DNA of 64,000 nucleotides from an uncultured Verrucomicrobiae bacterium (GTDB taxonomy: Bacteria > Verrucomicrobiota > Verrucomicrobiia > Limisphaerales > J093), in the NCBI GenBank assembly GCA_937976685.1, contig CALJWR010000011.1, positions 532-64,531 of the forward strand. Reading direction: 5' to 3'. The translations under genes and the position numbers were made by a program. Below are positions 38,394 to 50,123 of the stretch, piece after piece (the stretch's first letter is position 1; each line of letters begins with the position of its first letter). The notes under the pieces are model-generated. The model had not been told where the DNA came from. It saw only the letters and a list, made by a program, of their open reading frames with translations, and did no database searches.

Positions 38394-38930
38394 TCACACC
38401 GGTTCGATCTTCTTGTACACCACCATCTCGCCCTGCCCCTCCAGATCGGCGGGGTGGTAGCGCGGGATCGGCAGTTCGGTCTGTTTGAACTGCACGGGCG
38501 CGGTCTTCTTGTCCACCAGGTCCAAGGCCACGGCCACGCCGTAAATGATTGCCTCGGGCCGCGGCGGGCAGCCGGGGATGTAGTAGTTCACCGGGATGAG
38601 CTTCTCGACCGGTCCGAGCACCGAGTAGCTGTCGAACCAGATGCCGCCGCCGCAGGCGCAGGAGCCGATGGCGAACACGAGCTTCGGAGCGGGCATCGCT
38701 TCGTAAGCCCGCTGAAGCGCCTTTGCGGTGGAGCGCATGGCCGGGCCCTGACAGAGCATCACGTCAGCATGGCGCGGCGACCCTACGAGTTTGATGCCGA
38801 ACCGTTCGGCGTCGTAGTAGGGCGTGAGGACGTTCAATACCTCGATGTCGCACCCGTTGCACCCGCCGCTGTTGGCATGATAGACCCACAGCGACCGGCC
38901 GAACATTTTCTGGCAGAGATTCTTTAACAT
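38394..38930 (-). CDS. Group-4 [NiFe]-hydrogenase small subunit (HycG/EchC/NuoB-like)
   Basis: SGGCNGCDIE...GSCACGGG...IPGCPPRPEAI. Confidence 0.9.
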   Translation of the reverse strand: MLKNLCQKMFGRSLWVYHANSGGCNGCDIEVLNVLTPYYDAERFGIKLVGSPRHADVMLCQGPAMRSTAKALQRAYEAMPAPKLVFAIGSCACGGGIWFDSYSVLGPVEKLIPVNYYIPGCPPRPEAIIYGVAVALDLVDKKTAPVQFKQTELPIPRYHPADLEGQGEMVVYKKIEPV

Positions 38931-38933
38931 GAG

Positions 38934-39424
38934 TGCCCGCTAAACACGCCAAATATGCGAAAAAGGTGCAGCTTCATTGTTCAGTCTTGGAGCGTTGCGC
39001 CCTTGGCCTTCTGGTGTTCACGATGCGCTCGTATTGCAGACCGGGGTACTGGCCACAGTTCCCCAGCAGACCACGCTGGAAACCGGCTGCGTTGGGGTAG
39101 TTGAGAACCTGTGCCCGGTGTTCATCTGTCAGCTCGGACACCGCCTTGAGTTCAGGGATTATCTTGCCGTGGCAGATGAAGTCCGGCTCGTACTTGCGCT
39201 GCAATACACGCCCGCGATAGCTCAACTCCAGCGTGGGTTTCGGTACTGCCGGTAGTTTGAGGTGCTCGAACTCGATCTCCATGCATTCCTGATAAACCGG
39301 CTCAAAGAAACCGCAGCCTTTGTCCCGATAGACGTTGAAGCACCCGCCGATAATCGCATAGCTCTCCTCTTTGTAGATGAGTTCTTCGTCGTTCATTTCG
39401 TGTGTTTTGCGTGTTTAGCGGGCA
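38934..39424. mobile_element. IR-bounded 491-bp cassette carrying a GxxExxY gene, filling the hycF-like/hycG-like intergenic gap
   Basis: Perfect 16-bp terminal inverted repeats: tgcccgctaaacacgc (38934-38949) and gcgtgtttagcgggca (39409-39424). The interior is visibly lower in GC than the flanks. Confidence 0.6.
38974..39396 (-). CDS. GxxExxY protein (PD-(D/E)XK nuclease-like family)
   Basis: 140 aa with GFFEPVY (the GxxExxY motif), YEPDFICHGKIIPELKAV and HRAQVLNY. Confidence 0.85.
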   Translation of the reverse strand: MNDEELIYKEESYAIIGGCFNVYRDKGCGFFEPVYQECMEIEFEHLKLPAVPKPTLELSYRGRVLQRKYEPDFICHGKIIPELKAVSELTDEHRAQVLNYPNAAGFQRGLLGNCGQYPGLQYERIVNTRRPRAQRSKTEQ

Positions 39425-39425
39425 A

Positions 39426-39950
39426 TTAATCCAGTTCGATCTTCACATCATCCACCGCCGCTTCCTCGGTCAGGTAAGCCTTCGAGCGAAAGATCCACCG
39501 TTCGTTGGCCAAGTCATCGAAGCGGTAGCCCTTCAATTTGAGTTGTTCCAGCGGCGAGGGTTCCTTGAAGCAACGTCCGCAGCGCTGGCAGGTGCTCATG
39601 AACAGATCAAGCTTCTGCTGGATGTCGCCAATCGAGTTCGTCGCGTTCTCGAACTCGTGGCTCATGGTGATGGCCTTCTCCGGGCAGACATCGGCGCAAC
39701 GACCGCAATAGGTGCAGCGGCGGCCGAGGTATTTCAGGATGCGGACCTCCTGGCACACGTCGAACACGAGGATCTCGCGCGCCGGACAGTTGTTCGCGCA
39801 GCCCGCGCAACCGATGCACTTGGCGGCGTCGAAGATGGGCCGCCCGCGGAACCTCGGCGGCACCGGCTGCGTTTGCGCCGGATACGGCAAGGTCACGCGG
39901 CCCGCCTTCAGGCAGACCACGGCTTCTTTGAGTTTGCTTAGGAGAGACAT
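39426..39950 (-). CDS. Group-4 hydrogenase 2x[4Fe-4S] ferredoxin subunit (HycF/NuoI-like)
   Basis: CIGCAGCANNCP and CTYCGRCADVCP. Confidence 0.85.
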   Translation of the reverse strand: MSLLSKLKEAVVCLKAGRVTLPYPAQTQPVPPRFRGRPIFDAAKCIGCAGCANNCPAREILVFDVCQEVRILKYLGRRCTYCGRCADVCPEKAITMSHEFENATNSIGDIQQKLDLFMSTCQRCGRCFKEPSPLEQLKLKGYRFDDLANERWIFRSKAYLTEEAAVDDVKIELD

Positions 39951-39959
39951 CGTGACGTC

Positions 39960-40880
39960 TCAAAGCCCGTAACTCGCCAGCACCAACGCCCCCACCGCCA
40001 CCGCCAGCAGCCCGGCGAAGTAGCGAATCGCCTGGTCAATCCGGTACCGCGCATGCGTGGCCGCCACGAGCGCCACGAGCAGCACCAGCACGAGCACCTT
40101 CGCCCAAAACACCAGCCAGCCCAACGGGAACACCAGGCCGTTCCCCCAGGGCACGAACAGCGTGACAAACAACCCGCTGTAAATGACCAGCTTGGCCATC
40201 TGCGCGTATTTGAACAGCGCCAGCTTCGGCCCGGAGTACTCCATCAACGCGCCCTCCATGATTTCGGTCTCCGCCTCGGCGATGTCGAACGGCACCCGCT
40301 GCACGAACGCCTGGAATGACAAGATCATCACCGCGAGCATGATGAGTCCAGACAGCGGGAAGCCGGCACCGTACACCGACCCGTTCAGCACCGTGTCGAG
40401 GCGGAATGAACCGGTCTTCACCGCACCGATGACGATCGCAACGGCAAACAGCGGCTCCAGGGCGATCATCGCCATCATCTCGCGACTGATACCCAGCAAG
40501 GAGTAAGTCGAACCGGCCGCCAGACCAGCCAGCAGTGTGCAAACACCGGCCAGTGTGAGCAGGTAGATCAGCAGGAGGGCATCGCCGGCGCCGTTCATCG
40601 GGGCTGAAAAACCCATCGGGATGAAGCAGGCGAGCGTCAGTACCGTGGCCAGCGACAGGTAAACAGCGAAGCGCTGCATCAGGGGTGACTCGCCCGACTC
40701 GATGTCCTCTTTGCCGAGCAGTTTCAGGAGGTCGAAATACGGCTGCCAGATCGGCGGGCCTTGGCGCGATTGCATGATCGCGGTGACCTTGCGCAATACG
40801 CCCTCGTAAAACGGCGCGATGAGCAGCACCGCAACCACGTTCAGCAAACCGCCGAGAATGGGCCAGAGGAGAGTCCTCAT
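39960..40880 (-). CDS. Group-4 hydrogenase membrane subunit (HycD/NuoH-like)
   Basis: Multi-TM with MQSRQGPPIWQPYFDLLKLLGKE and PFDIAEAETEI, the NuoH/HycD signature. Confidence 0.9.
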   Translation of the reverse strand: MRTLLWPILGGLLNVVAVLLIAPFYEGVLRKVTAIMQSRQGPPIWQPYFDLLKLLGKEDIESGESPLMQRFAVYLSLATVLTLACFIPMGFSAPMNGAGDALLLIYLLTLAGVCTLLAGLAAGSTYSLLGISREMMAMIALEPLFAVAIVIGAVKTGSFRLDTVLNGSVYGAGFPLSGLIMLAVMILSFQAFVQRVPFDIAEAETEIMEGALMEYSGPKLALFKYAQMAKLVIYSGLFVTLFVPWGNGLVFPLGWLVFWAKVLVLVLLVALVAATHARYRIDQAIRYFAGLLAVAVGALVLASYGL

Positions 40881-40968
40881 GCTCCACTCCTCGTCTTTCG
40901 GTCGCTTGCGCGCGGCGAAGTTCCCATCGTGCGTGGGGCCGACGCACCGCAGAGCGGTGCCCCGAAGG

Positions 40969-41595
40969 GAGCCGTGGGTTTCAACCCACAGAAACCAGGT
41001 TGCACAAGTGCTCTCGTCGCGGAGCGACGCTTCAGGTCAATCCCACAGATATCGCTCGTCATATTGAATGCCATGCCGATCCAAAAAGACACGGTATTCC
41101 TCCTGGAATGACTTGATCCGATGATGCTCCCGTTGGTTTCGGATGTACTCCTCCACCTCGGGAATCTGTGACTTGCTGACGGTGAAAGACCCGTAGCCAT
41201 CCTGCCAGCCGAACGCCGGGCAAGTTGGAAATGTCTCTTTCACCCAGCCCGAAGATCCGCCTTTGATTCGCTTCAGGGCGTCGCTGACCGAAACCGTCGG
41301 AGGCATGGAAAGAAGCATGTGGACATGGTCCTCCACGCCGCCGACCAGCAGTGGCTTCAGGTCGTTCTGCCGCGCGATTCCTCCCGAGATAGGCCCAGAT
41401 GCGCTGTTCGATCGCCGGCATGATCCAGCGTTCACGGTTCTTCGCGCTGAAGATGACGTGGTAGTGTAGCGCGGTGTAGGTGTTCGCCATGCGCGTCAGC
41501 AGGTTTCAAGCGTCGCTCCGCGACGCGACACGGTATGTCCGGGGCTCACCGTGGACTGAAGTCCACGGCTACCGTCAGCACGTCGCTCCGCGACG
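40969..41595. mobile_element. REPtron-like unit: RAYT pseudogene flanked by palindromic REP hairpins in inverted orientation
   Basis: cgtcgcggagcgacgctt (41015-41032) is the exact reverse complement of aagcgtcgctccgcgacg (41508-41525). A further REP copy lies at 41581-41595. Related outer hairpins at 40969-40990 (gtgggtttcaacccac) and 41548-41571 (ccgtggactgaagtccacgg). Confidence 0.75.
41037..41490 (-). pseudogene. REP-associated tyrosine transposase (RAYT / IS200-like Y1 transposase), frameshifted
   Basis: N-terminus MANTYTALHYHVIFSAKNRERWI...IWAYLG is in one frame. The continuation GIARQNDLKPLLVGGVEDHVHMLLS...GWQDGYGSFTVS...REHH is in the +1 frame (track ORFs 41059..41490 and 41037..41435). 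A single-nt indel near 41381-41388 (GGGAGG) explains the shift. Confidence 0.8.
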
Positions 41596-41614
41596 ACTTC
41601 TCGGACTTCGGACT

Positions 41615-43288
41615 TCATTTCCTTACCCTCACCATCTTCATCAACTCCTCCTGCGACCACACCTTCACCGCCTGGGTTCGCAAGTCAATCGTCTCCAGGC
41701 GGTCCGTGCAGGAGAAACACGGGTCTATGCTGCCCAGCGAGATGGTCATGTCGGCCAGTTGCTGGTCTTTGATCATCGCCGGCACGCCCTGGAGGTTTTG
41801 ATAGGTCGGCGCCCGCACGCGCCAGCGGCGCGGCCGGTTGTTTTCGCCGGTGATCACGAAATGATGCGATTCACCGCGCGGGGCCTCGACGGACGACATC
41901 CCCAGCCGGCCCACGGGCAGTTCATCTTTGATCTCCGTCTGGAGCGGCCCCGGCTCCATTTTCTCCAGGCATTGGCGGATGATCTTGATGGACTCGAAGA
42001 CTTCCTTGGCCCGTACCACCAGACGCGACCAGACATCGGCGCCGTCCGCGGTGATGACATCGAATTCCACCCGGTCGTAGGCGGCGTAAGGATGATCCCG
42101 GCGGCAATCCATGTCCGCGCCGGCCGCGCGGGCTACCGGGCCGATGAGTCCCATTTCCTTTACCAGTCGGCGGTCAGCCACGCCCACGTGGCGGGTGCGC
42201 TTCTGAATGTTCTTGTCCCTGAGCACGGCGGCCACGACCGGCGTCCATTCGGCTTCGAGCTTGTCGAGTACGGCGCGCAACTCCGCTTTCGTCTCGGGCG
42301 CGATGTCCCAACGCACGCCGCCAATGACACAGAGCGCGTAAGTCTTGCGGTTGCCGGTGATCTTCTCGGCGATCCACATGACCGGCTCGCGGATGCGGAA
42401 GCTCTGCATGAAGAGCGTGTCGAACCCGACGATGTGGCAAGCGAGGCCCACCCAGAGCAGGTGGCTGTGGAGGCGCTCGATCTCCAGCATGATGGTGCGG
42501 ATGTATTCGGCGCGCGGCGGCGGGCGCAGAGCCACGGCGCTTTCGACGGCCTGGGCGTAGCAGACGTTATGCACGCAGCCGCAGATGCCGCAGATGCGCT
42601 CGGCCATCAAGGGGATGTCGTTGTAGGTGAGCACCGACTCGGCGAGCTTCTCGATGCCGCGATGCACCATGAAGCCGCGATACTCGCAGCCGCGCACCAT
42701 CTCGCCCTCGACGTAAAGCCGAAAATGCGCTGGCTCATCCAGCGTCGGATGGAACGGGCCGAAGGGCACCACGGTGCAGCCCTCTGGCGGCTCATCGAAC
42801 TTGAACTCACGCTCGTGGTCGAAGCCTTCGGGCACCTGATTCCACGCGAAATCCTTGCGGAGCGGATGCACGCCGTCGGGCCAGCCGTCGGGCAACACGA
42901 GGCGTTTCAGAAAACGGTGACCGACCGGCTCGATGCCGACCAGGTCGCGGATTTCGCGCTCGGCCCAGTTGGCGGCAGGCACCACCTCGGAAATGCTGTC
43001 GAGCTTCGGATTCTCAGCGGGCAAATACGTCAGGACGCTGGCCAGCAGGTGCTCACGATCGAAGGCGAAGTGGTGCGCCACCATGAACTTGCCGGAGAAC
43101 GGGCGGTCATCCGCGCCAATGCTGATGACGTAGCGGGCGTCGAGGTCGCGGAAGATGTGGGCACACACGTCCCTCACGGCGGAGGGTTCAATGAAGACGA
43201 ACAGGCGTCCGTCACTTGGCAAGTCCGCCCGCTGGACGGCCGGGCCAAACTGGGCCTTGAGTTGATTGAGTTTTTCGCGGGCGATCAT
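41615..43288 (-). CDS. Group-4 [NiFe]-hydrogenase large subunit, NuoC-NuoD fusion type (HycE-like)
   Basis: N-terminal NuoC-like part, ERICGICGCVH (L1), and C-terminal DPCFSCTDR followed by a 26-aa tail. ATG 43288 lies inside track ORF 41615..43360. Confidence 0.92.
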   Translation of the reverse strand: MIAREKLNQLKAQFGPAVQRADLPSDGRLFVFIEPSAVRDVCAHIFRDLDARYVISIGADDRPFSGKFMVAHHFAFDREHLLASVLTYLPAENPKLDSISEVVPAANWAEREIRDLVGIEPVGHRFLKRLVLPDGWPDGVHPLRKDFAWNQVPEGFDHEREFKFDEPPEGCTVVPFGPFHPTLDEPAHFRLYVEGEMVRGCEYRGFMVHRGIEKLAESVLTYNDIPLMAERICGICGCVHNVCYAQAVESAVALRPPPRAEYIRTIMLEIERLHSHLLWVGLACHIVGFDTLFMQSFRIREPVMWIAEKITGNRKTYALCVIGGVRWDIAPETKAELRAVLDKLEAEWTPVVAAVLRDKNIQKRTRHVGVADRRLVKEMGLIGPVARAAGADMDCRRDHPYAAYDRVEFDVITADGADVWSRLVVRAKEVFESIKIIRQCLEKMEPGPLQTEIKDELPVGRLGMSSVEAPRGESHHFVITGENNRPRRWRVRAPTYQNLQGVPAMIKDQQLADMTISLGSIDPCFSCTDRLETIDLRTQAVKVWSQEELMKMVRVRK

Positions 43289-43376
43289 GGAGAGAAAAGG
43301 CCGAAGTCCGATTCGGGAACGAGTACGTGGACCGAAGGTGCGACACGCCATGCACCCCAACGGGGTGCTGGTGCAT

Positions 43377-43560
43377 CAGCCCAGGGCAAGCGAGTCCGCG
43401 ATCGCCGCCCTGGGTTACACGCGTGAAGAGGGCCTACACCCTGAAGGGGTGCGGGTCGGACGCGGGTTGCAGTCCGGTTCACCGGCACCCTTTCAGGGAG
43501 CCCACCATTGTCGTGCTTTGTTCCCAGGGCGGCGCTCGCGGACTCGCTTGCCCTGGGCTG
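43377..43560. repeat. 38-bp inverted repeat (1 mismatch) / nested palindromes, REP/BIME-like
   Basis: cagcccagggcaagcgagtccgcga (43377-43401) is the exact reverse complement of 43536-43560. The arms extend to 43414 and 43523 with one mismatch, and each arm is itself a cccaggg...ccctggg hairpin. Flanking hairpins at 43352-43368 and 43570-43584. Confidence 0.85.
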
Positions 43561-43613
43561 GTTTACCACGGCCCTTTCAGGGCCGGCGGCTGCCAACAAT
43601 GTCCGATCTGGTT

Positions 43614-45536
43614 TCATGGCAGGCCTTCCTCTTTGCCAGGGCCAACTCGCGCTGCGCCGCCCAGCCAACCAAACCACTTCTTCAATTCGCCATACAATCC
43701 TCTGGCACGGTACCGGTTCGCTTCGGCTTCGCGCGCATACCCGCAGAGCCACGGTGCGGCCGCCCGGCGGGGCGCGCAGCCAAGCTTCGAGAGTTTCCGC
43801 ACCAGAGCAAACATCAACGCCAGCACCGCGACCAGAACCACCGGCCCATAAAGCGCCTGCTGGTTGACGCTGCCCAGCCCCGTCCAGACACCGAATGTAA
43901 TCGGGCGCGCGTCGGCCAACACGACGCCCAGCCCTTGCCGGCTCGCATTGAGTCCAGCGCTGATGATCGAGAGCGCGAACAGCGGCATCAGCCCGGAAAG
44001 CACGCAGACACAGGCCAGCGCCGCCTGGGCCAGGCGCATCTTGAGCGTGACTTCGAGCAGCGAATGTCGCCGGGCGCGCTCGGCCACGAGTTCACTGGCG
44101 CGCGAAAGGAACATCACGCCGAAGAACTTGATGAACAGCGCCAACGTGATTGCGCTGGTGAAAATGGCGACCAGCGCGCACACGGGCAGCCAGCGCGCCA
44201 CCGCGCCGCCCTGGATCGCGGCGGTGAAGATGCTCCACTTGCTCGCGAAGCCACTGAACAGCGGCACGCCGGCGATGGCGAAGCTGGCGATCAACGCCGT
44301 GATGGCCGTGGCGGGCATGTGCCGGATGAGCCCGCTCAGCTTGTTCATGTCCTGCGTGCCCGTGGCGTGCAGCACCGAGCCGGCGTTGAGGAAGAGCAGG
44401 CTCTTGAACACGCCGTGGTTCAGTGTGTGAAAGAGCGCGCCATAGAAACCGGCTGTGGCCAGGGCCACAACAGGCTCGTGGGTTGAGCCAATCAGCGTCA
44501 GGCACACGCCCAGCCCAAAGAGGATGTATCCACCCTGCCCGATGCTGGAGAAAGCAAGCAGGCGTTTCGACTGCTCCTGTCGCAGCGCCTGCACGGTGCC
44601 CGTGAACAAGGTCGCCGTGCCCAGCAGCGCAATCACGGTGCCCCACTTGGCCGCCGGATAGTCCGCGCGCGATTCCGCCGGCACCAGCCAGAGGAAGTAG
44701 CGCATCAGGCCATAGACGCCGGTCTTGATCATGACGCCCGAGAGCATCGCGCTCACCGGCGACGGCGCGGCGGGATGCGCGTCCGGCAGCCAGATTTGGC
44801 CAAAGGGCCATACGCCGAGCTTGATGCCGAAGCCGACGAGGAATAGGGCGAACGCCACCGCCACCCAGCCGCCCTGCTCTTTCAACTGCGCCGGCATGTG
44901 GTGCAGCACGGCGTCGAAGTCATATTTCATCAGCGTCTCGCCGCCCTCAGTGACGCCAGTGCGCGCGAGGATCGCGGCGCCGACCATCGTGATGCCGCAG
45001 GCCAGTTGCATCATCCAGAGATACTTCTTCGCGGCCCAGGCGTTCTCCGGTTTGCGTCGCTCGTAGCGGATGAGCGCCCAGCCGGCCCAGGTCATTATCT
45101 GCCAAAAGATGAAGAAGAACCACATCATGTCCGTGGTGCTCACCAGGCCATACATCGCGGCGACGAACAGGAGAAAGTTCGGATAGTAGCGCCCCACCCC
45201 GTGCTCCTGGTGATGTCGCATGTAATCAATCGAATACAACGACGCCGGGACGGCCACGGCGGAGATCAGGCACAAAAAGACGGCGCTAAGACCGTCCACG
45301 TAAAGCCGCAAAGCAAAGCCGAGGGATTCGATCGCGAGGAAGGTGCGGGCTTTGCCGGGACCATGCAGCAGGACCAGGCCGGCCTCCATGAGGATCAAAA
45401 CACTGGACGCAAAGACGCAGGCGAACGCCACCCAGCCGGCGATCGCCGTGCGGCGACGTAGCAGCAACGCCAGCATCGCCCCGCTGCCGCAGACAATCAT
45501 GGCATCCAAAACGGCGTGTTCGGCGGTGAAAGTCAT
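43614..45536 (-). CDS. Group-4 hydrogenase antiporter-like membrane subunit (HycC/HyfB/NuoL-like)
   Basis: Multi-TM with WLPDAHPAAPSPVSAMLSGVMIKTGVYG and AFSSIGQGGY. ATG 45536 preferred (MTFTAEH). Confidence 0.9.
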   Translation of the reverse strand: MTFTAEHAVLDAMIVCGSGAMLALLLRRRTAIAGWVAFACVFASSVLILMEAGLVLLHGPGKARTFLAIESLGFALRLYVDGLSAVFLCLISAVAVPASLYSIDYMRHHQEHGVGRYYPNFLLFVAAMYGLVSTTDMMWFFFIFWQIMTWAGWALIRYERRKPENAWAAKKYLWMMQLACGITMVGAAILARTGVTEGGETLMKYDFDAVLHHMPAQLKEQGGWVAVAFALFLVGFGIKLGVWPFGQIWLPDAHPAAPSPVSAMLSGVMIKTGVYGLMRYFLWLVPAESRADYPAAKWGTVIALLGTATLFTGTVQALRQEQSKRLLAFSSIGQGGYILFGLGVCLTLIGSTHEPVVALATAGFYGALFHTLNHGVFKSLLFLNAGSVLHATGTQDMNKLSGLIRHMPATAITALIASFAIAGVPLFSGFASKWSIFTAAIQGGAVARWLPVCALVAIFTSAITLALFIKFFGVMFLSRASELVAERARRHSLLEVTLKMRLAQAALACVCVLSGLMPLFALSIISAGLNASRQGLGVVLADARPITFGVWTGLGSVNQQALYGPVVLVAVLALMFALVRKLSKLGCAPRRAAAPWLCGYAREAEANRYRARGLYGELKKWFGWLGGAARVGPGKEEGLP

Positions 45537-45627
45537 GCGCTCACGATGCACGCGCGGGCGTTAATGCCAGTTGCGGTCCAACGGCTCGGCGCCCCGTTCG
45601 CTATTGGTTGCATGGACCGGACGACAG

Positions 45628-46134
45628 TCATACCACCGCTGCCTCCGCTTGCCCCGCGAGCAGGCTAGCCAGGCGCTCCACGGTGAGTGCCACGGTCGGT
45701 GAAAGTCCGCGCCCGCGGGCGAGCGAGGCCGGTTGCACGCCCAGCAACCAGACCTTGGTGCGACCATTCTTTTCGACGAGTTGCGCCAGCAGACCGAGTG
45801 ACAACTTGTGCGTGGACACCTGGGGAAAACGCGATCCCATCCCGGTCGAATCCAGCAAAACAACCGAACCAGGCGTACAGCCACACTCGACCGCATCCAC
45901 GAACAACACCGTGTCAAAGGCGGCCGCGTCAAGATCGGCGACGTACCGTTCAGGGGAAACGCCAGCGACGATAACGGCAAAGTCGCAGGACGAAGCCCGC
46001 CGGTTGCCGCTCTTCCCCAAGGTTTCCGCCAACCGCACCCCTGTGCCGTCATCGCCGTACTCGAGGTTCCCCATGCCAACGACGCACACGCGGCCGCGCA
46101 GGAGGTCGCTCAGTTGTTCGCGGAAGTCAGGCAT
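45628..46134 (-). CDS. Hydrogenase maturation endopeptidase (HycI-like)
   Basis: VCVVGMGNLEYGDDGTGVRLA...VLFVDAVE...STHKLSL. Confidence 0.8.
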   Translation of the reverse strand: MPDFREQLSDLLRGRVCVVGMGNLEYGDDGTGVRLAETLGKSGNRRASSCDFAVIVAGVSPERYVADLDAAAFDTVLFVDAVECGCTPGSVVLLDSTGMGSRFPQVSTHKLSLGLLAQLVEKNGRTKVWLLGVQPASLARGRGLSPTVALTVERLASLLAGQAEAAVV

Positions 46135-46979
46135 CAGATGTCCTCACCGAGTTTCTTGATCTGTTCGTAGGTGAACACCGGGCCATCCACGCACACGTAG
46201 GCCACGCCGATGCAGCAATGGCCGCATTTGCCCACACCGCATTTCATGTAGCGTTCCAGGGTGGAGACGATGCAGCGCTCGGGCAGTCCCATGTTGAGCA
46301 AGTCTTTGATGACGAAGCGGAACATGATCGGCGGGCCACAGACGAAGGCGATGGTGTTGTCCACCGGCACCTCAATGCCGGGCTTTTTGAAAAGGCTTCC
46401 GACCACGCCCACGTGGCCATTCCACGCCGGATCCGCGCGGTCCACGGTCAGATGACATTCAACCCCGGCAGACTGTTCCCAGCGGCGCAAGTCCTCGCGG
46501 TACATGAGGTCGCGCGAAGTGCGGGCACCGAGGAAGATCTGGATGCGCTGAAACTTCTCGCGGTGGGCCAGTGCGTACATGATGCACGAGCGCAGCGGGA
46601 TCAGCCCAATGCCGCCCGCGACGAAAACCAGATTCTTCCCATAGTAGTCCTCCATCGGAAAGCCGTTGCCATAGGGACCGCGCACGGCGAATTGATCACC
46701 GGGTTTCAGGGCGTGCAGGGATCCCGAACAACTGCCGACCTGCCGGGCGGTGAAGAAGGTTTGGGCCTCGGTGGGGCTGGGCGGCAGCGACAGCGGAAAC
46801 TCGCCCGTGCCGAAGACCGACACCTGCGCGAACTGCCCCGGCCGGAAGCGTCCGAATCTCCGCTGTTCCTCCGGATCTTCGAAGTGCCAGTAAAATGTCT
46901 TCACCTCGGCGATCTCGTCCTGCACCCGGTCCAGAACGGCAAGCTTTGGCAGGTAGATGTTTTCCGCACCGGCGCTCAC
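46134..46979 (-). CDS. FAD/NAD(P)-binding 2Fe-2S oxidoreductase subunit (sulfhydrogenase gamma HydG / AsrB / PyrK-like)
   Basis: RPGQFAQV...RGPYGNGF...LVFVAGGIGLIPLRS...C-terminal CGVGKCGHCC. Confidence 0.85.
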   Translation of the reverse strand: MSAGAENIYLPKLAVLDRVQDEIAEVKTFYWHFEDPEEQRRFGRFRPGQFAQVSVFGTGEFPLSLPPSPTEAQTFFTARQVGSCSGSLHALKPGDQFAVRGPYGNGFPMEDYYGKNLVFVAGGIGLIPLRSCIMYALAHREKFQRIQIFLGARTSRDLMYREDLRRWEQSAGVECHLTVDRADPAWNGHVGVVGSLFKKPGIEVPVDNTIAFVCGPPIMFRFVIKDLLNMGLPERCIVSTLERYMKCGVGKCGHCCIGVAYVCVDGPVFTYEQIKKLGEDI

Positions 46980-48088
46980 GACTGCTCCCCCCCGGCGGTC
47001 GCCGAAAGACGCCCGGTTTCCCCCATGGCCCGGCGGATCATCTCCACCACACTGGGCATCCCCACATCACCGTGGCAGACGGCGGCGCAGCGTCCGCAAC
47101 CGAGGCAGGCCATGCTGAGTTCGCGCTGGATGAAGTAGTGCGCCAGCTTGCGGAAGAACCGGCGATTGCGCCGGTCATGCACCGCCTTGCGCGGGTTGTG
47201 CCCCCCTGCCATCCGGGTGAAGCCCCCCAAAGCGCAGGAATCCCAGATGCGGACGCGCTCGATCTCGTCCGGCCCCACCTTCCGGTCGGTGACGGTGAAG
47301 CAGGTGCAAGCCGGGCAAACATAGGTGCAACCGCCGCATTCGAGACAGCGGTTGCCGATCTCTTCCCAGGTCTTGTCGAGGATCTTGCCCTGGGACACGT
47401 AGCGAACCGTGGCCGGGAACCAACTGGTGGTCGTCTTGAAGCGTTTGCGGACATCGCTGAGGATGGCCCGGCGGCGTTCGACGTGCGCCTCGGTGCCCTT
47501 TCGGAAAACCGGGTTCGCGAAGAGCGCCTCGCCCGCCGGGGTGCCGGCCACCGCCATGAACTCACCGTCGTGCAGGTCCATGAGCTGCAGATCGAAATGG
47601 TCGCGCGCCGCGGGACCCGTGTCCGCACAGACACAGAAACACTCGTCGGCAATATCCACGTTCGGATCGGAACAGACGACGTTCACCAGAAACAGGTTGC
47701 GCCGCCGTTGCTCGTAGTAGGTGTCGCGGAACTCGCGCCCGAGATAGAACCGGTCCAGATGCCAGATGCCGGCCACGTCGCACGACCGAATGCCAAAGAT
47801 CGCCCGCTTGGGATGTTCGTAGGTCGGTTGAATGTCGAAGGTTCCCGAGCCGGTCCCAATCCGAAACAGCCGCTCGATGTGCGGCAGCACGTAGCGCTTC
47901 GGAGGGTAAAAGGGATTTGCTACGTGAACCCGCACGTGCGCGCGGTTATCGTCGGTAACCACGTCGAAAAAGGTGTCCCGCCGGCTTTCTTCATCGCGAC
48001 AGAACGGCGCGATCACCTCGTAGCCTCGAGCGCGGAGCAAATCCACCACGGTGAGGACCTGGTCGTGATTGAGGATGCGCGCTTTCAC
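46976..48088 (-). CDS. 4Fe-4S dicluster subunit (sulfhydrogenase beta HydB / AsrA-like)
   Basis: CLECGGCTYVCPACTC and CLGCGRCAAVC. GTG 48088 lies 1 nt after the upstream stop, and the track ORF extends to 48196 inside the upstream gene. Confidence 0.78.
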   Translation of the reverse strand: MKARILNHDQVLTVVDLLRARGYEVIAPFCRDEESRRDTFFDVVTDDNRAHVRVHVANPFYPPKRYVLPHIERLFRIGTGSGTFDIQPTYEHPKRAIFGIRSCDVAGIWHLDRFYLGREFRDTYYEQRRRNLFLVNVVCSDPNVDIADECFCVCADTGPAARDHFDLQLMDLHDGEFMAVAGTPAGEALFANPVFRKGTEAHVERRRAILSDVRKRFKTTTSWFPATVRYVSQGKILDKTWEEIGNRCLECGGCTYVCPACTCFTVTDRKVGPDEIERVRIWDSCALGGFTRMAGGHNPRKAVHDRRNRRFFRKLAHYFIQRELSMACLGCGRCAAVCHGDVGMPSVVEMIRRAMGETGRLSATAGGEQS

Positions 48089-48089
48089 G

Positions 48090-50123
48090 TCACAGTTTTT
48101 CGACGCGGACGCAAATCGGGCGGTCCAGGGCGCCGACCTCCACCGCGGTCCGGCCGAGGATCGCCCGTTCAACCTCCCGCACGAAGAACGGGACAAAGAC
48201 GGTTCCCCTTCGAACCTCGCGCGTCACGCGGGCCACTGTTTCGGTGGCCCCTCCCGCCGTCACCAGCCGGATTCGCCCGCCATCCCGCACCCCGAGCGCC
48301 CGCGCGTCTTCGTCATTCACCTCCACAAATCCTTCCGGGTAGTCGAGGAGCAGCACCCGGTACTCGCGCTTAAGGGTCTCACTGTGGCGGATCAGCGCGT
48401 TCTGGTGCCAGTAGTAGAGGGAATGCCCAAACACCAGCCCGACCGGGAAATCCGCCGACGCGCAGGCGGGCTTGCCGGGGCGCGGCACGCGCGCGAGTCG
48501 GAAAGGCCGCCAAGAGGTCTCGGCATCGAACAAAAACTTGGTTCCCAGCGGACGATCGTGGGTGCAGGGCCATTGTCGGCCGTATCCTCGCGCCAAGTTT
48601 TCATGCGAGGCCGCAGAATAGAAGGGCACGACTTCGCCAATCTCGGCCATCACGTCGGCGGAGGAGAGATACCGCCATTCCGCGCCCAACGCCCGAGCCA
48701 CCAGCATCAATTGCCGCCATGCGGGGATGGTGCCCGCCAACGGAGGAATCGCCTGCGCGGCCAGTTGAATGCGCCGGTCGGTGCTGGTGAAACTCACCTG
48801 CTCCTCCCCGAAGGCCGTGCAGGGCAGAATGACATGCGCATAGTCCGCCGTCGCAGTCATAAATAGGTGCTGGACCACGACCAGTTCCAGTCCCTTGAGA
48901 ACCTCGGCGGCGTCGCAAAAGGTCGCGTTGGTCACGGGGTCATACCGGCACAGCCAAGCCGCCTTGAATCGCCCCGGTCGGCGCCCTCCGAAGAACGAGC
49001 GCGCGCCAGCCCCGGGCTCGGCCGGAAGCACGACGCCCCATTTTTCCTCAAAAACCTCGCGTCGGGTGGCATCCGACACCAGCACATACCCCGGCAGCAT
49101 GTCTGGCAGCACGCCCATGTCACAAACACCTTGAAGATTGTTTTGCTCGGTGAGTGGAAAGATCCCGGAACCGCGCCGTCCCACGTGTCCGCAAAGCAAC
49201 GCGAGATTCACCATCGCGCGGATGCTGTCTGGATTGCGGGCCTCGGCGCCGGTCGAGAACAGCACGGCGGCTGTTCTGGCGCGCGCGTACGCGAGGGCCG
49301 CAGCTTCGATGGATTCGGCCGGCACGCCGCAAACCTCAGCAGCGGAGAGGAGATCGTATTGCGCGAGGCAGGCCTCAAACGCCGCGTAATCACGGCAGCG
49401 CGACTTCAGAAACACCAGGTTGGCCAGTCCGCGATCAACAATGACCTTGGCCATGGCGCCGTAGAGGTGAACGTCAGTGCCGGGCCGTAATTGCAGCAAA
49501 TGGTCCGCGTGTTCCGCCACCCGGTGGCGCCGCGGATCCACCACAATCAGCCGCGCGCCGCCGAGCTTGGCGCGGATCACGTGGCCCCCAACGGTTGGCA
49601 ACTGCATTCCCAAGTCCACCCCGTCCACCAGGATGACTTCGCTTGCCGCCAACTCGCCGAGCGAATTGCTTGCCGCCGGCACCCCCAACATTTCGAGAAA
49701 CACATGAACGGCGTTGTTGGCGTAAACCCCGAAGCCGTGATCCACGTTGTTGGTGCCAATGACGGCCCGCGCGAGCTTCTGCAGCAGGTACGCCTCCTCG
49801 TTCGAACAGCGGGGCGCATTGAAGAAGCCGAAGGCATCGGGTCCCCACTGCTGCCGAATTGCCTCCATCCGGGCGGCGATGAACCGAACCGCCTCCTCCC
49901 AGGAGGCCGGCCGCAGACGCCCGTTCTCCCGGAGCAGCGGGTGTCGCAGGCGGTCCGGGGAGCTGGCGACTTCGTGGACATGCCAGCCTCTCACGCAGAT
50001 GCGCCCTTGGTTGCTCGGGTGCGACATGCTCGGGTACGCCCCAAGAATTCGGCACCCGTCGGTCTCCAGGTAGATCCCGCAACCGACTCCGCAGAACGTG
50101 CACGTGGTAAGTTGGTGCGCCAT
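48090..50123 (-). CDS. Mo/W-bisPGD oxidoreductase, FdhF (formate dehydrogenase H)-like but with a non-canonical active site
   Basis: N-terminal 4Fe-4S motif CTFCGVGCG...C. AVIGTNNVDHGFGVYANNAV aligns to E. coli FdhH AVIGTNNVDCCARVUHGPSV, and PLTEQNNLQGVCDMG aligns to PVRGQNNVQGACDMG. Confidence 0.88.
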   Translation of the reverse strand: MAHQLTTCTFCGVGCGIYLETDGCRILGAYPSMSHPSNQGRICVRGWHVHEVASSPDRLRHPLLRENGRLRPASWEEAVRFIAARMEAIRQQWGPDAFGFFNAPRCSNEEAYLLQKLARAVIGTNNVDHGFGVYANNAVHVFLEMLGVPAASNSLGELAASEVILVDGVDLGMQLPTVGGHVIRAKLGGARLIVVDPRRHRVAEHADHLLQLRPGTDVHLYGAMAKVIVDRGLANLVFLKSRCRDYAAFEACLAQYDLLSAAEVCGVPAESIEAAALAYARARTAAVLFSTGAEARNPDSIRAMVNLALLCGHVGRRGSGIFPLTEQNNLQGVCDMGVLPDMLPGYVLVSDATRREVFEEKWGVVLPAEPGAGARSFFGGRRPGRFKAAWLCRYDPVTNATFCDAAEVLKGLELVVVQHLFMTATADYAHVILPCTAFGEEQVSFTSTDRRIQLAAQAIPPLAGTIPAWRQLMLVARALGAEWRYLSSADVMAEIGEVVPFYSAASHENLARGYGRQWPCTHDRPLGTKFLFDAETSWRPFRLARVPRPGKPACASADFPVGLVFGHSLYYWHQNALIRHSETLKREYRVLLLDYPEGFVEVNDEDARALGVRDGGRIRLVTAGGATETVARVTREVRRGTVFVPFFVREVERAILGRTAVEVGALDRPICVRVEKL

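Follow-up and report, generated by a model that had tools for sequence, protein, structure and literature searches.

Group 3b [NiFe]-hydrogenases couple NADPH oxidation to H2 evolution (HydDB), and no characterized membrane-bound group-4 hydrogenase is wired directly to NAD(P)H. An enzyme of that kind would bear on how NAD(P)H electrons are released as H2 and on whether an NAD(P)H-to-H2 step can couple to membrane potential. Ancestors resembling formate hydrogenlyase (FHL) have been placed on a proposed evolutionary route to complex I. An 'enigmatic' group-4 cluster of Saganbacteria RX5A encodes an unclassifiable FdhH-like protein with one [4Fe-4S] domain alongside AsrA-like, AsrB-like and CooF-like genes; these genes adjoin a Mrp-Mbh-type [NiFe] hydrogenase with several antiporter subunits, and an oxidoreductase module was proposed for them (Matheus Carnevali et al., 2019, PMC6349859). 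Here we analyze a nine-gene operon in a 64,000-nucleotide stretch of DNA (the window; GenBank assembly GCA_937976685.1, contig CALJWR010000011.1, positions 532 to 64,531) from an uncultured Verrucomicrobiae bacterium, which joins a Hyc-type group-4 core to a HydB/HydG-like pair and to an FdhF-like subunit that we call FdhL. Judged from its genes, the enzyme belongs to the group-4 hydrogenases but has an input module of another, NAD(P)H type, and it is widespread in environmentally abundant phyla. We assign a probability of roughly 0.5 to the reading that the nine genes encode one membrane-bound, Hyc-type NAD(P)H:H+ (H2:NAD(P)+) oxidoreductase, one of whose subunits is a NuoG-like pseudo-formate dehydrogenase, and not an FHL. 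What is new here is the loss of formate dehydrogenase (FDH) residues in the FdhL of a Hyc-type nine-gene cluster; the group-4 core and the beta/gamma pair are each already known. The first-pass annotation of the window had recognized no such combination among characterized enzymes, and we likewise found none of this composition. A literature search found no paper on the Hyc-type version, its loss of FDH residues or its biochemistry, and returned only the Saganbacteria description and generic FHL annotations.

Nine intact open reading frames (ORFs) occupy positions 38394-50123 of the window on the minus strand, in the order that the first-pass annotation had given, and Pfam and NCBIfam profiles support the identity of every gene. 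From the first gene to the last, with lengths in amino acids (aa), they are:

48090 to 50123, minus strand: FdhF-like molybdopterin-oxidoreductase-fold subunit (FdhL), 677 aa; TIGR01591, 535 bits against a 666-bit cutoff
46976 to 48088, minus strand: HydB/AsrA-like poly-[4Fe-4S] subunit, 370 aa; PF17179 (Fer4_22)
46134 to 46979, minus strand: HydG/AsrB-like FAD/NAD(P)-binding [2Fe-2S] subunit, 281 aa; PF00175 (NAD_binding_1) and PF10418 (DHODB_Fe-S_bind), NF006220 at 242 bits
45628 to 46134, minus strand: HycI-type hydrogenase maturation endopeptidase, 168 aa; PF01750, TIGR00072 at 91.7 bits, over its cutoff
43614 to 45551, minus strand: HycC/HyfB-like antiporter-like membrane subunit, ~640 aa; Proton_antipo_M (PF00361) and Proton_antipo_N, NF005086 ('hydrogenase 4 subunit B') at 389 bits
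41615 to 43288, minus strand: HycE-type [NiFe] large subunit, a NuoC-NuoD fusion, 557 aa; PF00329, PF00374 (NiFeSe_Hases) and PF00346
39960 to 40880, minus strand: HycD/NuoH-like membrane subunit, 306 aa; PF00146 at 213 bits
39426 to 39950, minus strand: HycF/NuoI-like 2x[4Fe-4S] subunit, 174 aa; Fer4 families, NF009053 ('formate hydrogenlyase complex iron-sulfur subunit') at 99.7 bits
38394 to 38930, minus strand: HycG/NuoB-like small subunit with one [4Fe-4S], 178 aa; PF01058 at 107 bits

HydB begins at GTG 48088 rather than at 48196, one base past the FdhL stop, a start that orthologue lengths match; the HydG ORF overlaps HydB by 4 nucleotides (nt), and the HycI start overlaps the HydG stop. 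HycC, the sole antiporter-like subunit of the cluster, starts at GTG 45551 or ATG 45536, and the HycE start was corrected to ATG 43288, giving a protein of 557 aa whose orthologues measure 555-563 aa. All nine ORFs have high GC content at third codon positions (GC3), as is usual for coding sequence in the source genome, and the closest genome, the Verrucomicrobia metagenome-assembled genome (MAG) GCA_016716505.1, encodes proteins 87-99% identical to those of the window. For comparison with other genomes, an FdhL profile was scanned against one genome per GTDB species, yielding 549 relatives from which 80 loci (L numbers below) were kept, and gene order at each locus was read by tblastn with the window proteins. 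We refer to sequences with 53-68% identity to the window FdhL as clade 1 and to those with 30-36% identity as clade 2.

The first-pass annotation held that the usual HycB ferredoxin is replaced by a beta/gamma pair of the kind found in group-3b sulfhydrogenases and anaerobic sulfite reductase, and that this pair carries an NAD(P)H/FAD site; both statements agree with what we found. E. coli HycB and HyfA queries gave zero tblastn matches in the 64-kb window (E 1e-3), and no HycB/HyfA-type gene is present at the Pfam-annotated loci L001, L003, L088 and L089. The best solved relative of HydB is the beta subunit of P. furiosus sulfhydrogenase I (9nez_B, E 7e-38), and HydG matches the NADPH-binding gamma subunit of the same enzyme (9nez_C) at 197 bits (E 2.5e-57, ~45% identity by eye over 250 residues). 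NCBIfam scores of the pair lie under the equivalog cutoffs for HydB, HydG, AsrA and AsrB alike: HydB reaches 145 bits against NF040833 (sulfhyd_HydB), under cutoff, and the AsrA/AsrB equivalog profiles TIGR02910 and TIGR02911 give 129.5 against a 323-bit cutoff and 192 against 288.6 bits, respectively. In HydG, the flavin motif GExxxS, the nucleotide-binding motifs GGIGLIPL and CGPP and the [2Fe-2S] motif C-x4-C-x2-C...C are conserved at ~57 clade-1 and 12 clade-2 loci, and every Cys motif of HydB is conserved in both clades, a degree of conservation that contrasts sharply with the variable FdhL site described below. The nine-gene unit has group-3b beta/gamma subunits complete with Fe-S, FAD and NAD(P) sites, whereas the group-3b alpha and delta subunits are not beside them: the adjoining catalytic subunits are HycE and HycG, of group 4. 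No AsrC or third Asr-type gene occurs in the unit or its annotated flanks.

FdhL carries the N-terminal [4Fe-4S] motif, lacks a twin-arginine translocation (Tat) signal and is 32% identical to E. coli FdhF. In alignments with PDB structures it reads NNVDHGFGVYANN where true enzymes read NNVDHCARL[C/U]H, and PLTEQNN compared with PLRGQNN in true FDHs. We aligned 120 close orthologues to E. coli FdhH, whose numbering is used here, and found that the selenocysteine (Sec) or Cys metal ligand at position 140 is Tyr in 120/120, that the catalytic His at 141 is Cys, Ser, Thr, Gly or Ala throughout the 120, and that the catalytic Arg at 333 is Thr in 115/120. Gly334 is replaced by Glu and Lys44 by Arg in every one (120/120 each), and the four Cys ligands of the [4Fe-4S] cluster are retained. 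The window FdhL itself has Y134 and A135 at positions 140/141, Thr at 333 and Arg at the Lys44 position. Across the wider family the former active-site dipeptide reads YC, YS, YA, FR, HR or SR, with G-H-R in clade 2; position 140 is Y, F, H, S or G, and at 333 the family has T, S, A, N, C or P. Sec/Cys140, Arg333 and Lys44 are missing in both clades, and His141 is lost in clade 1 and kept in most clade-2 sequences. True FDHs from the same scan retain CAR[C/U]H, RGQNN and CxKG.

A set of 158 residues is invariant among five true FDHs; clade 1 retains 87 of them and clade 2 retains 72. Only 16/67 polar or charged FDH-invariant residues survive in both clades, compared with 14 in the cofactor-less C-terminal domain of E. 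coli NuoG, and 26/37 Gly/Pro residues survive in both. Profile scores place FdhL between the two reference proteins, at 164 bits for PF00384 (337 for FdhF and 64 for NuoG) and 49 bits for PF01568 (96 and 31, respectively). The FdhL proteins of both clades are monophyletic with moderate support (133/200 bootstraps). An AlphaFold2 model built from a 24-sequence alignment has a mean pLDDT of only 68 and values below 50 in the Fe-S domain and in the loops of the former active site, and a Foldseek search with this model of modest confidence returned the FDH fold at a TM of ~0.7. These comparisons indicate that the fold is preserved in FdhL and that the ligand-type residues are not. We conclude from them that FdhL is very probably not a formate dehydrogenase, and that it looks more like a NuoG-type scaffold or electron-transfer subunit than a catalyst.

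The surroundings of FdhL were surveyed as well. Upstream of the gene we found no molybdenum cofactor (Moco) riboswitch or other Rfam family, only sub-threshold Acido-Lenti-1 matches that lie on repeats. FocA, Pfl, FhlA and Moco genes are all missing from the annotated flanks of the nine-gene unit, where the neighbors are glycoside hydrolases, a glycosyltransferase, a Na+/H+ exchanger and the like. The 300 nt upstream of FdhL at 67 loci contain no sigma-54, Rex, FNR or CRP-type sites and no common 8-mer, and the numbers of promoter and terminator candidates did not exceed those in shuffled sequence.

The alternative that survives best is that FdhL is still a molybdenum- or tungsten-pterin (Mo/W) enzyme with an unusual site, either ligand-less or lined by Tyr, that acts on an unknown substrate and links it to H2 and NAD(P)H, perhaps in a three-way or confurcating reaction. 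We consider this unlikely. The FDH fold is kept, as seen in the 32% identity, the 164 bits for PF00384 and the 87/158 FDH-invariant residues of the close clade; pocket residues are invariant in that clade, and the DPR motif and several cofactor-region motifs remain. Arsenite oxidase, moreover, is a Mo-bis(pyranopterin guanine dinucleotide) enzyme without a protein ligand to the metal. However, the metal-ligand and catalytic-Arg positions vary among subclades of a single syntenic family (YC, FR, HR, SR, GHR), polar FDH-invariant residues have been lost to the same extent as in cofactor-less NuoG, the cofactor region bears the replacements N176D, D429H, D478A, R581H and H585Y, and neither a Moco riboswitch nor Moco genes accompany the operon. 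The first-pass annotation had predicted a hydrogenase wired to NAD(P)(H) and/or an unknown Mo-enzyme substrate; the NAD(P)(H) module stands, and the Mo-substrate option is weakened because the residues on which FDH catalysis depends are missing from FdhL and the family varies at the positions concerned.

A separate profile search of 1.84 billion representatives returned six single-cluster FdhF-like proteins of ~665-700 aa that lie outside both clades and are without the Cys/Sec and the Arg of RGQ (P0365, P0366, P0367, P0389, P0398 and P0406). All of these except P0398 have a C-x-[RQK]-G-W motif. Pseudo-formate dehydrogenases may, on this showing, be a wider group.

The nine genes are, by gene order and gene spacing across genomes, one conserved unit. 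A survey of other phyla for the same synteny, proposed in the first-pass annotation, found the full order FdhL-HydB-HydG-HycI-HycC-HycE-HycD-HycF-HycG at 43 clade-1 loci and 7 clade-2 loci in more than ten phyla. Clade 1 includes Verrucomicrobiota, Acidobacteriota, Omnitrophota, Nitrospirota, NC10/Methylomirabilales, Lentisphaerota, Armatimonadota, Thermodesulfobacteriota, Fibrobacteria and Baltobacteraceae, with Planctomycetia and Geobacteraceae represented by shorter fragments, and clade 2 consists mainly of Spirochaetota and Leptospirales with some Thermodesulfobacteriota and Acidobacteriota. Nearly all remaining loci are prefixes of the nine-gene order that end at contig ends; five loci (L056, L066, L068, L073 and L076) depart from this pattern, and L084 gave no HydG match but contains a run of 66 N. 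Median gaps at the eight junctions are about -28 to +16 nt, and at L001, from Acidobacteria, genes overlap at four of the eight junctions and are 1 nt apart at a fifth. In pairwise distances, HycE correlates with FdhL at 0.85, with HydB at 0.87 and with HydG at 0.84, compared with 0.76-0.85 for the core subunits, and the HycE and FdhL trees show the same two-clade split. Contig-end cases aside, no locus of either clade has FdhL without Hyc genes, and the true FDHs caught in the FdhL scan (n=4; L079 and L081-L083) have zero Hyc neighbors.

These data bear on a second alternative, in which two enzymes are merely co-transcribed: an Ech-like, ferredoxin-dependent HycCDEFG hydrogenase and a separate, soluble FdhL-HydB-HydG oxidoreductase. 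We regard this as rather improbable. Ech, which depends on ferredoxin and works without a HycB-type subunit, has the six modules that the five Hyc proteins comprise, and the Saganbacteria cluster suggests that the FdhL-HydB-HydG trio can be an independent module. Against co-transcription alone stand the invariant order of abutting genes in more than ten phyla and two deep clades, the position of HycI between the two halves, the constant company of FdhL and Hyc genes, and the grouping of the large subunits from every such cluster in a single clade apart from E. coli HycE/HyfG. The first-pass annotation had named a separate transcription unit for the three upstream genes as an outcome that would overturn its reading; because order, abutment or overlap and co-divergence are conserved across the 43 + 7 loci, the trio is not a separate unit.

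Three further observations concern variation among the loci. HycE is 82% and HycG 88% identical between the window (Verrucomicrobiota) and L001 (Acidobacteriota), unusually high values across phyla that suggest either strong constraint or fairly recent lateral spread of the whole operon. Four Verrucomicrobia loci (L008, L010, L016 and L023) have ~2 kb extra between hycI and hycC, and in L008, L016 and L023, though not in L010, this extra sequence contains a second HycC-like match, which suggests variants with two antiporter-like subunits. HycC is represented by split or short ORFs in L003 (7765-9686) and L088 (14539-16473), reflecting assembly frameshifts or real decay; the window copy is intact.

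The hydrogenase core is of the FHL/group-4 type, as the first-pass annotation had it: the best PDB match of HycE is E. coli HycE (7z0s_E, 419 bits, compared with 240 bits for P. furiosus MbhL), and the group-4 subunit set is present, comprising a NuoB-like subunit with one [4Fe-4S], a NuoI-like subunit with 2x[4Fe-4S], a NuoH-like subunit and a NuoL-like subunit. HycE is 38-39% identical to E. coli HycE/HyfG and 80-94% identical to its orthologues in Verrucomicrobiota and Acidobacteriota MAGs. The NiFe ligand motifs, described earlier as intact, are present in the window HycE as RICGIC and DPCFSCTDR, and RICGIC and DPCFSCT[DE]R occur in 57/57 family large subunits examined. Past DPCFSCTDR, HycE has a C-terminal extension of the kind that HycI-type proteases remove, and a cleavable extension is kept in all family large subunits examined. 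HycG is 46-47% identical to HycG/HyfI with CNGC, GSC and GCPP conserved, HycF retains both CxxCxxCxxxCP motifs across the family, and HycD is 37% identical to HyfC and 32% to HycD with the conserved PFDxAEAExE loop (the E-channel loop) kept. HycC is 32% identical to E. coli HyfB and retains the Lys residues of transmembrane helices 7, 8 and 12 (TM7, TM8 and TM12) and a His-His-Lys group.

The other overturning outcome named in the first-pass annotation, a large subunit in a well-characterized subgroup whose members routinely carry these accessory genes, is not indicated either: in a neighbor-joining HycE tree rooted on NuoCD, with no reference sequences for subgroups 4b-4i, both clades together form a group of their own that includes no characterized member and is sister to E. 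coli HycE + HyfG. The label group 4f (Ehf/Ehr) was also considered and was set aside as unlikely, because the enzymes that one study assigned to 4f are described as lacking the Ni/Fe ligands that this family has.

That the operon encodes an ordinary formate hydrogenlyase of group 4a, as automated and MAG annotations imply, is very unlikely in our view. E. coli HycE/HyfG are the closest characterized large subunits, and sources label the first gene 'formate dehydrogenase alpha'; peat Acidobacteria MAGs have also been described with an FHL of 'fdhF, hyf operon' type, which may be the nine-gene cluster. Yet no member examined has Sec/Cys140 or Arg333, clade 1 has lost His141 as well, the TIGR01591 score of FdhL is under cutoff, HycB is absent from the window, and there are no FocA, Pfl or FhlA genes in the flanks and no sigma-54 promoter upstream of FdhL. 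Other names given to these genes in the sources are formate dehydrogenase or YjgC-type molybdopterin oxidoreductase, Ni,Fe-hydrogenase III large subunit and, once, formate hydrogenlyase subunit 5; routine annotation probably misreads the function of the nine-gene operon.

In the NAD(P)H-linked oxidoreductase that we favor, a flavo-iron-sulfur pair binding NAD(P)H would replace formate dehydrogenase and HycB as the electron input. The path would lead from NAD(P)H through the FAD and [2Fe-2S] of HydG and the [4Fe-4S] clusters of HydB to the two [4Fe-4S] clusters of HycF, from which HycG, by way of its proximal [4Fe-4S], would connect to the [NiFe] site in HycE; every step would be reversible. 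FdhL would serve as a scaffold or electron relay, as does the FDH-like C-terminal domain of NuoG in complex I, and its single [4Fe-4S] (the N7 equivalent) may join the electron path. HycD and HycC would anchor the complex in the membrane, and the predicted net reaction is NAD(P)H + H+ <-> NAD(P)+ + H2, with possible ion movement through HycD/HycC. The midpoint potentials (E0') are ~-320 mV for NAD(P)H and ~-414 mV for H+/H2. Direction would be set by H2 pressure: H2 evolution would be uphill at 1 atm and favorable at the pascal-level H2 of peat and sediment, and high H2 would favor NAD(P)+ reduction. Evolution of H2 may be driven by ion flow or may drive it, and proton-motive force may assist. 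Gene content, cofactor motifs, conservation and co-inheritance and the loss of FDH catalytic residues are direct observations, from which we infer that the proteins assemble physically as a single complex, that its substrate is NAD(P)H, in which direction it runs and that it is coupled to ions.

Several points weigh against this reading. The TM5 Glu of HycC, called 'strictly conserved' in the FHL structure paper, is Gln in 52/54 clade-1 and 9/9 clade-2 sequences, which makes ion pumping doubtful; in the window the site is Gln151, within a 'WQ' where other antiporter-like subunits (NuoL/M/N, HyfB/D/F and HycC) have 'WE'. The first-pass annotation had called the enzyme ion-translocating, and this part of its prediction calls for caution: the Lys residues of TM7, TM8 and TM12, the His residues and the HycD loop are kept, whereas the TM5 Glu is replaced, leaving ion coupling by HycD/HycC plausible but uncertain. 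FdhL is ~60% identical across phyla, with Tyr140, Gly136/138, Asn143 and Glu334 invariant in the 120 close sequences, and such a conserved pocket in the close clade makes residual function possible. The Hyc core without HycB resembles six-subunit Ech and could receive electrons directly from ferredoxin. Co-divergence of the subunits can mirror operon co-inheritance without physical contact. Finally, the homologues encountered all derive from MAGs or metagenomes, as do the best 120 matches for each clade.

A more far-reaching proposal, to which we give somewhat less than an even chance, is that the operon represents a new class within the complex I superfamily, a proton-reducing counterpart of complex I that would pass electrons from NAD(P)H to a membrane [NiFe] site with ion coupling, and in which FdhL would be a second, independent step from an FdhF-type to a NuoG-type subunit. 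The addition of an NAD(P)H input and a catalysis-lost FDH-fold subunit to a hydrogenase core closely parallels the proposed route from FHL-like ancestors to complex I, for which this family would be a living test case. A proton-reducing enzyme of this class would allow abundant Acidobacteriota, Verrucomicrobiota, Nitrospirota and NC10 of peat, soil and groundwater to release surplus NAD(P)H electrons as H2, or to take H2 up into NAD(P)H, in an energy-coupled manner. If FdhL cannot oxidize formate, the genes to which formate-to-H2 flux is now attributed in abundant bacteria of wetlands, soils and groundwater are the wrong ones.

Three insertions interrupt the operon in the window, and a second hydrogenase cluster follows it:

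43369 to 43568, no strand assigned: inverted repeat of 200 nt resembling a miniature inverted-repeat transposable element (MITE), in the hycC-hycE gap; arms of 88 nt, 76% complementary
41015 to 41595, minus strand: REPtron, a RAYT/IS200-like Y1 transposase with three repetitive extragenic palindromic (REP) palindromes, in the hycE-hycD gap
38974 to 39396, minus strand: GxxExxY PD-(D/E)XK ORF of 140 aa, in the hycF-hycG gap; PF13366, TIGR04256 at 104 bits
33277 to 38232, minus strand: complete HoxEFUYH (HoxE-HoxF-HoxU-HoxY-HoxH), a group-3d NAD-linked bidirectional hydrogenase, 161 nt downstream of hycG

The GxxExxY ORF recurs at the same position in the Verrucomicrobia loci L003, L008 and L088, and Acidobacteria, Omnitrophota and most other loci lack it; by this distribution it is an old, tolerated insertion within the operon and not part of the enzyme. 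The REPtron and the MITE-like repeat are likewise insertions and not enzyme parts. The RAYT gene has one frameshift near 41385 (its frames run from 41490 to ~41385 and then 41384-41037), and the 150-aa protein reconstructed by joining the two frames matches PF01797 (Y1_Tnp, E 1.7e-27). The palindrome CGTCGCGGAGCGACG occurs in three copies against 0.1 expected. The REPtron is absent in the close relative L003, where the hycE-hycD gap is ~136 nt. The MITE-like repeat has perfect termini of 25 nt that are found nowhere else in the window and would form a long hairpin in the operon transcript; the hycC-hycE gap that holds it measures 325 nt in the window, ~311 nt in L003 and 1 nt in L001. We consider it highly improbable that the window operon is decaying and non-functional owing to these three mobile or repeat insertions (MITE-like repeat in hycC-hycE, REPtron in hycE-hycD and GxxExxY gene in hycF-hycG). 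The split HycC calls in L003 and L088 speak for decay, but in the window the nine ORFs are full length with high GC3 and 87-99% identical to those of L003, the insertions are all intergenic, terminator-like sites are no commoner than chance, and the GxxExxY insertion is common to more distant Verrucomicrobia, pointing to long coexistence with an intact operon.

Two sub-threshold matches to the Rfam family Acido-Lenti-1 (32.2 and 22.8 bits against a 37-bit threshold), at 41549-41595 and 43523-43585 on the plus strand, coincide with a REP palindrome and one arm of the MITE-like repeat, respectively; the Acido-Lenti-1 motif may be a REP/MITE-type repeat rather than a small RNA. Hox genes also adjoin the nine-gene unit at L003, L033, L047, L053 and L072, on its upstream side in NC10/Methylomirabilales, Baltobacteraceae and an unclassified MAG, and because Hox adjoins the unit both in the window and at those loci, the two hydrogenases are neighbors in several phyla.

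Compared with E. coli FHL-1 and FHL-2 (Hyc/Hyf, group 4a, 7Z0S/7Z0T), the family shares the NuoC-NuoD fusion with its cleavable C-terminus, the HycI protease, homologues of HycF, HycG and HycD, one HycC/HyfB-type subunit and an FdhF-fold protein in the system. It differs in lacking HycB/HyfA and the FDH catalytic residues, in the added HydB/HydG module and in a large subunit of only 38-39% identity. The membrane arms differ too, the Lys/Glu pair of HycC being broken in opposite ways: the family has Gln in TM5 and Lys in TM7, whereas E. coli HycC has Glu135 (TM5) and Leu208 (TM7), and in TM12 the family has Lys where E. coli has Glu391. With Ech (group 4e) the family has in common a minimal six-module membrane-bound core with no HycB-type subunit; in Ech, NuoC and NuoD modules are found on two proteins, and genes of the FdhF-like, HydB and HydG kinds are missing.

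With group-3b enzymes (P. furiosus sulfhydrogenase I, 9NEZ) and AsrA/AsrB, the family shares a homologous beta/gamma pair with all of its Fe-S, FAD and NAD(P) motifs, but here the pair is joined to a membrane-bound group-4 core instead of the cytosolic 3b alpha/delta subunits or AsrC. The Saganbacteria RX5A cluster, by its description, similarly places FdhH-like and AsrA/AsrB-like genes beside a membrane-bound [NiFe] hydrogenase; in the window, by contrast, the core is of the Hyc type with one antiporter-like subunit and no CooF/HycB. Both this family and complex I belong to the complex I superfamily, and the likeness to the NuoE/F/G module of the peripheral arm lies in an NAD(P)H-oxidizing flavoprotein input combined with an FDH-fold subunit that has lost catalysis and kept the N7-equivalent cluster. 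The components themselves are different, since HydG is of the FAD type and unrelated to the FMN-type NuoF, and FdhL, which scores 396 bits to an FDH compared with 63 bits to Nqo3, is a derived FDH and not near NuoG. The acceptor in this family would be H+ at the [NiFe] site where complex I uses quinone, and the membrane arm has one antiporter-like subunit where complex I has three.

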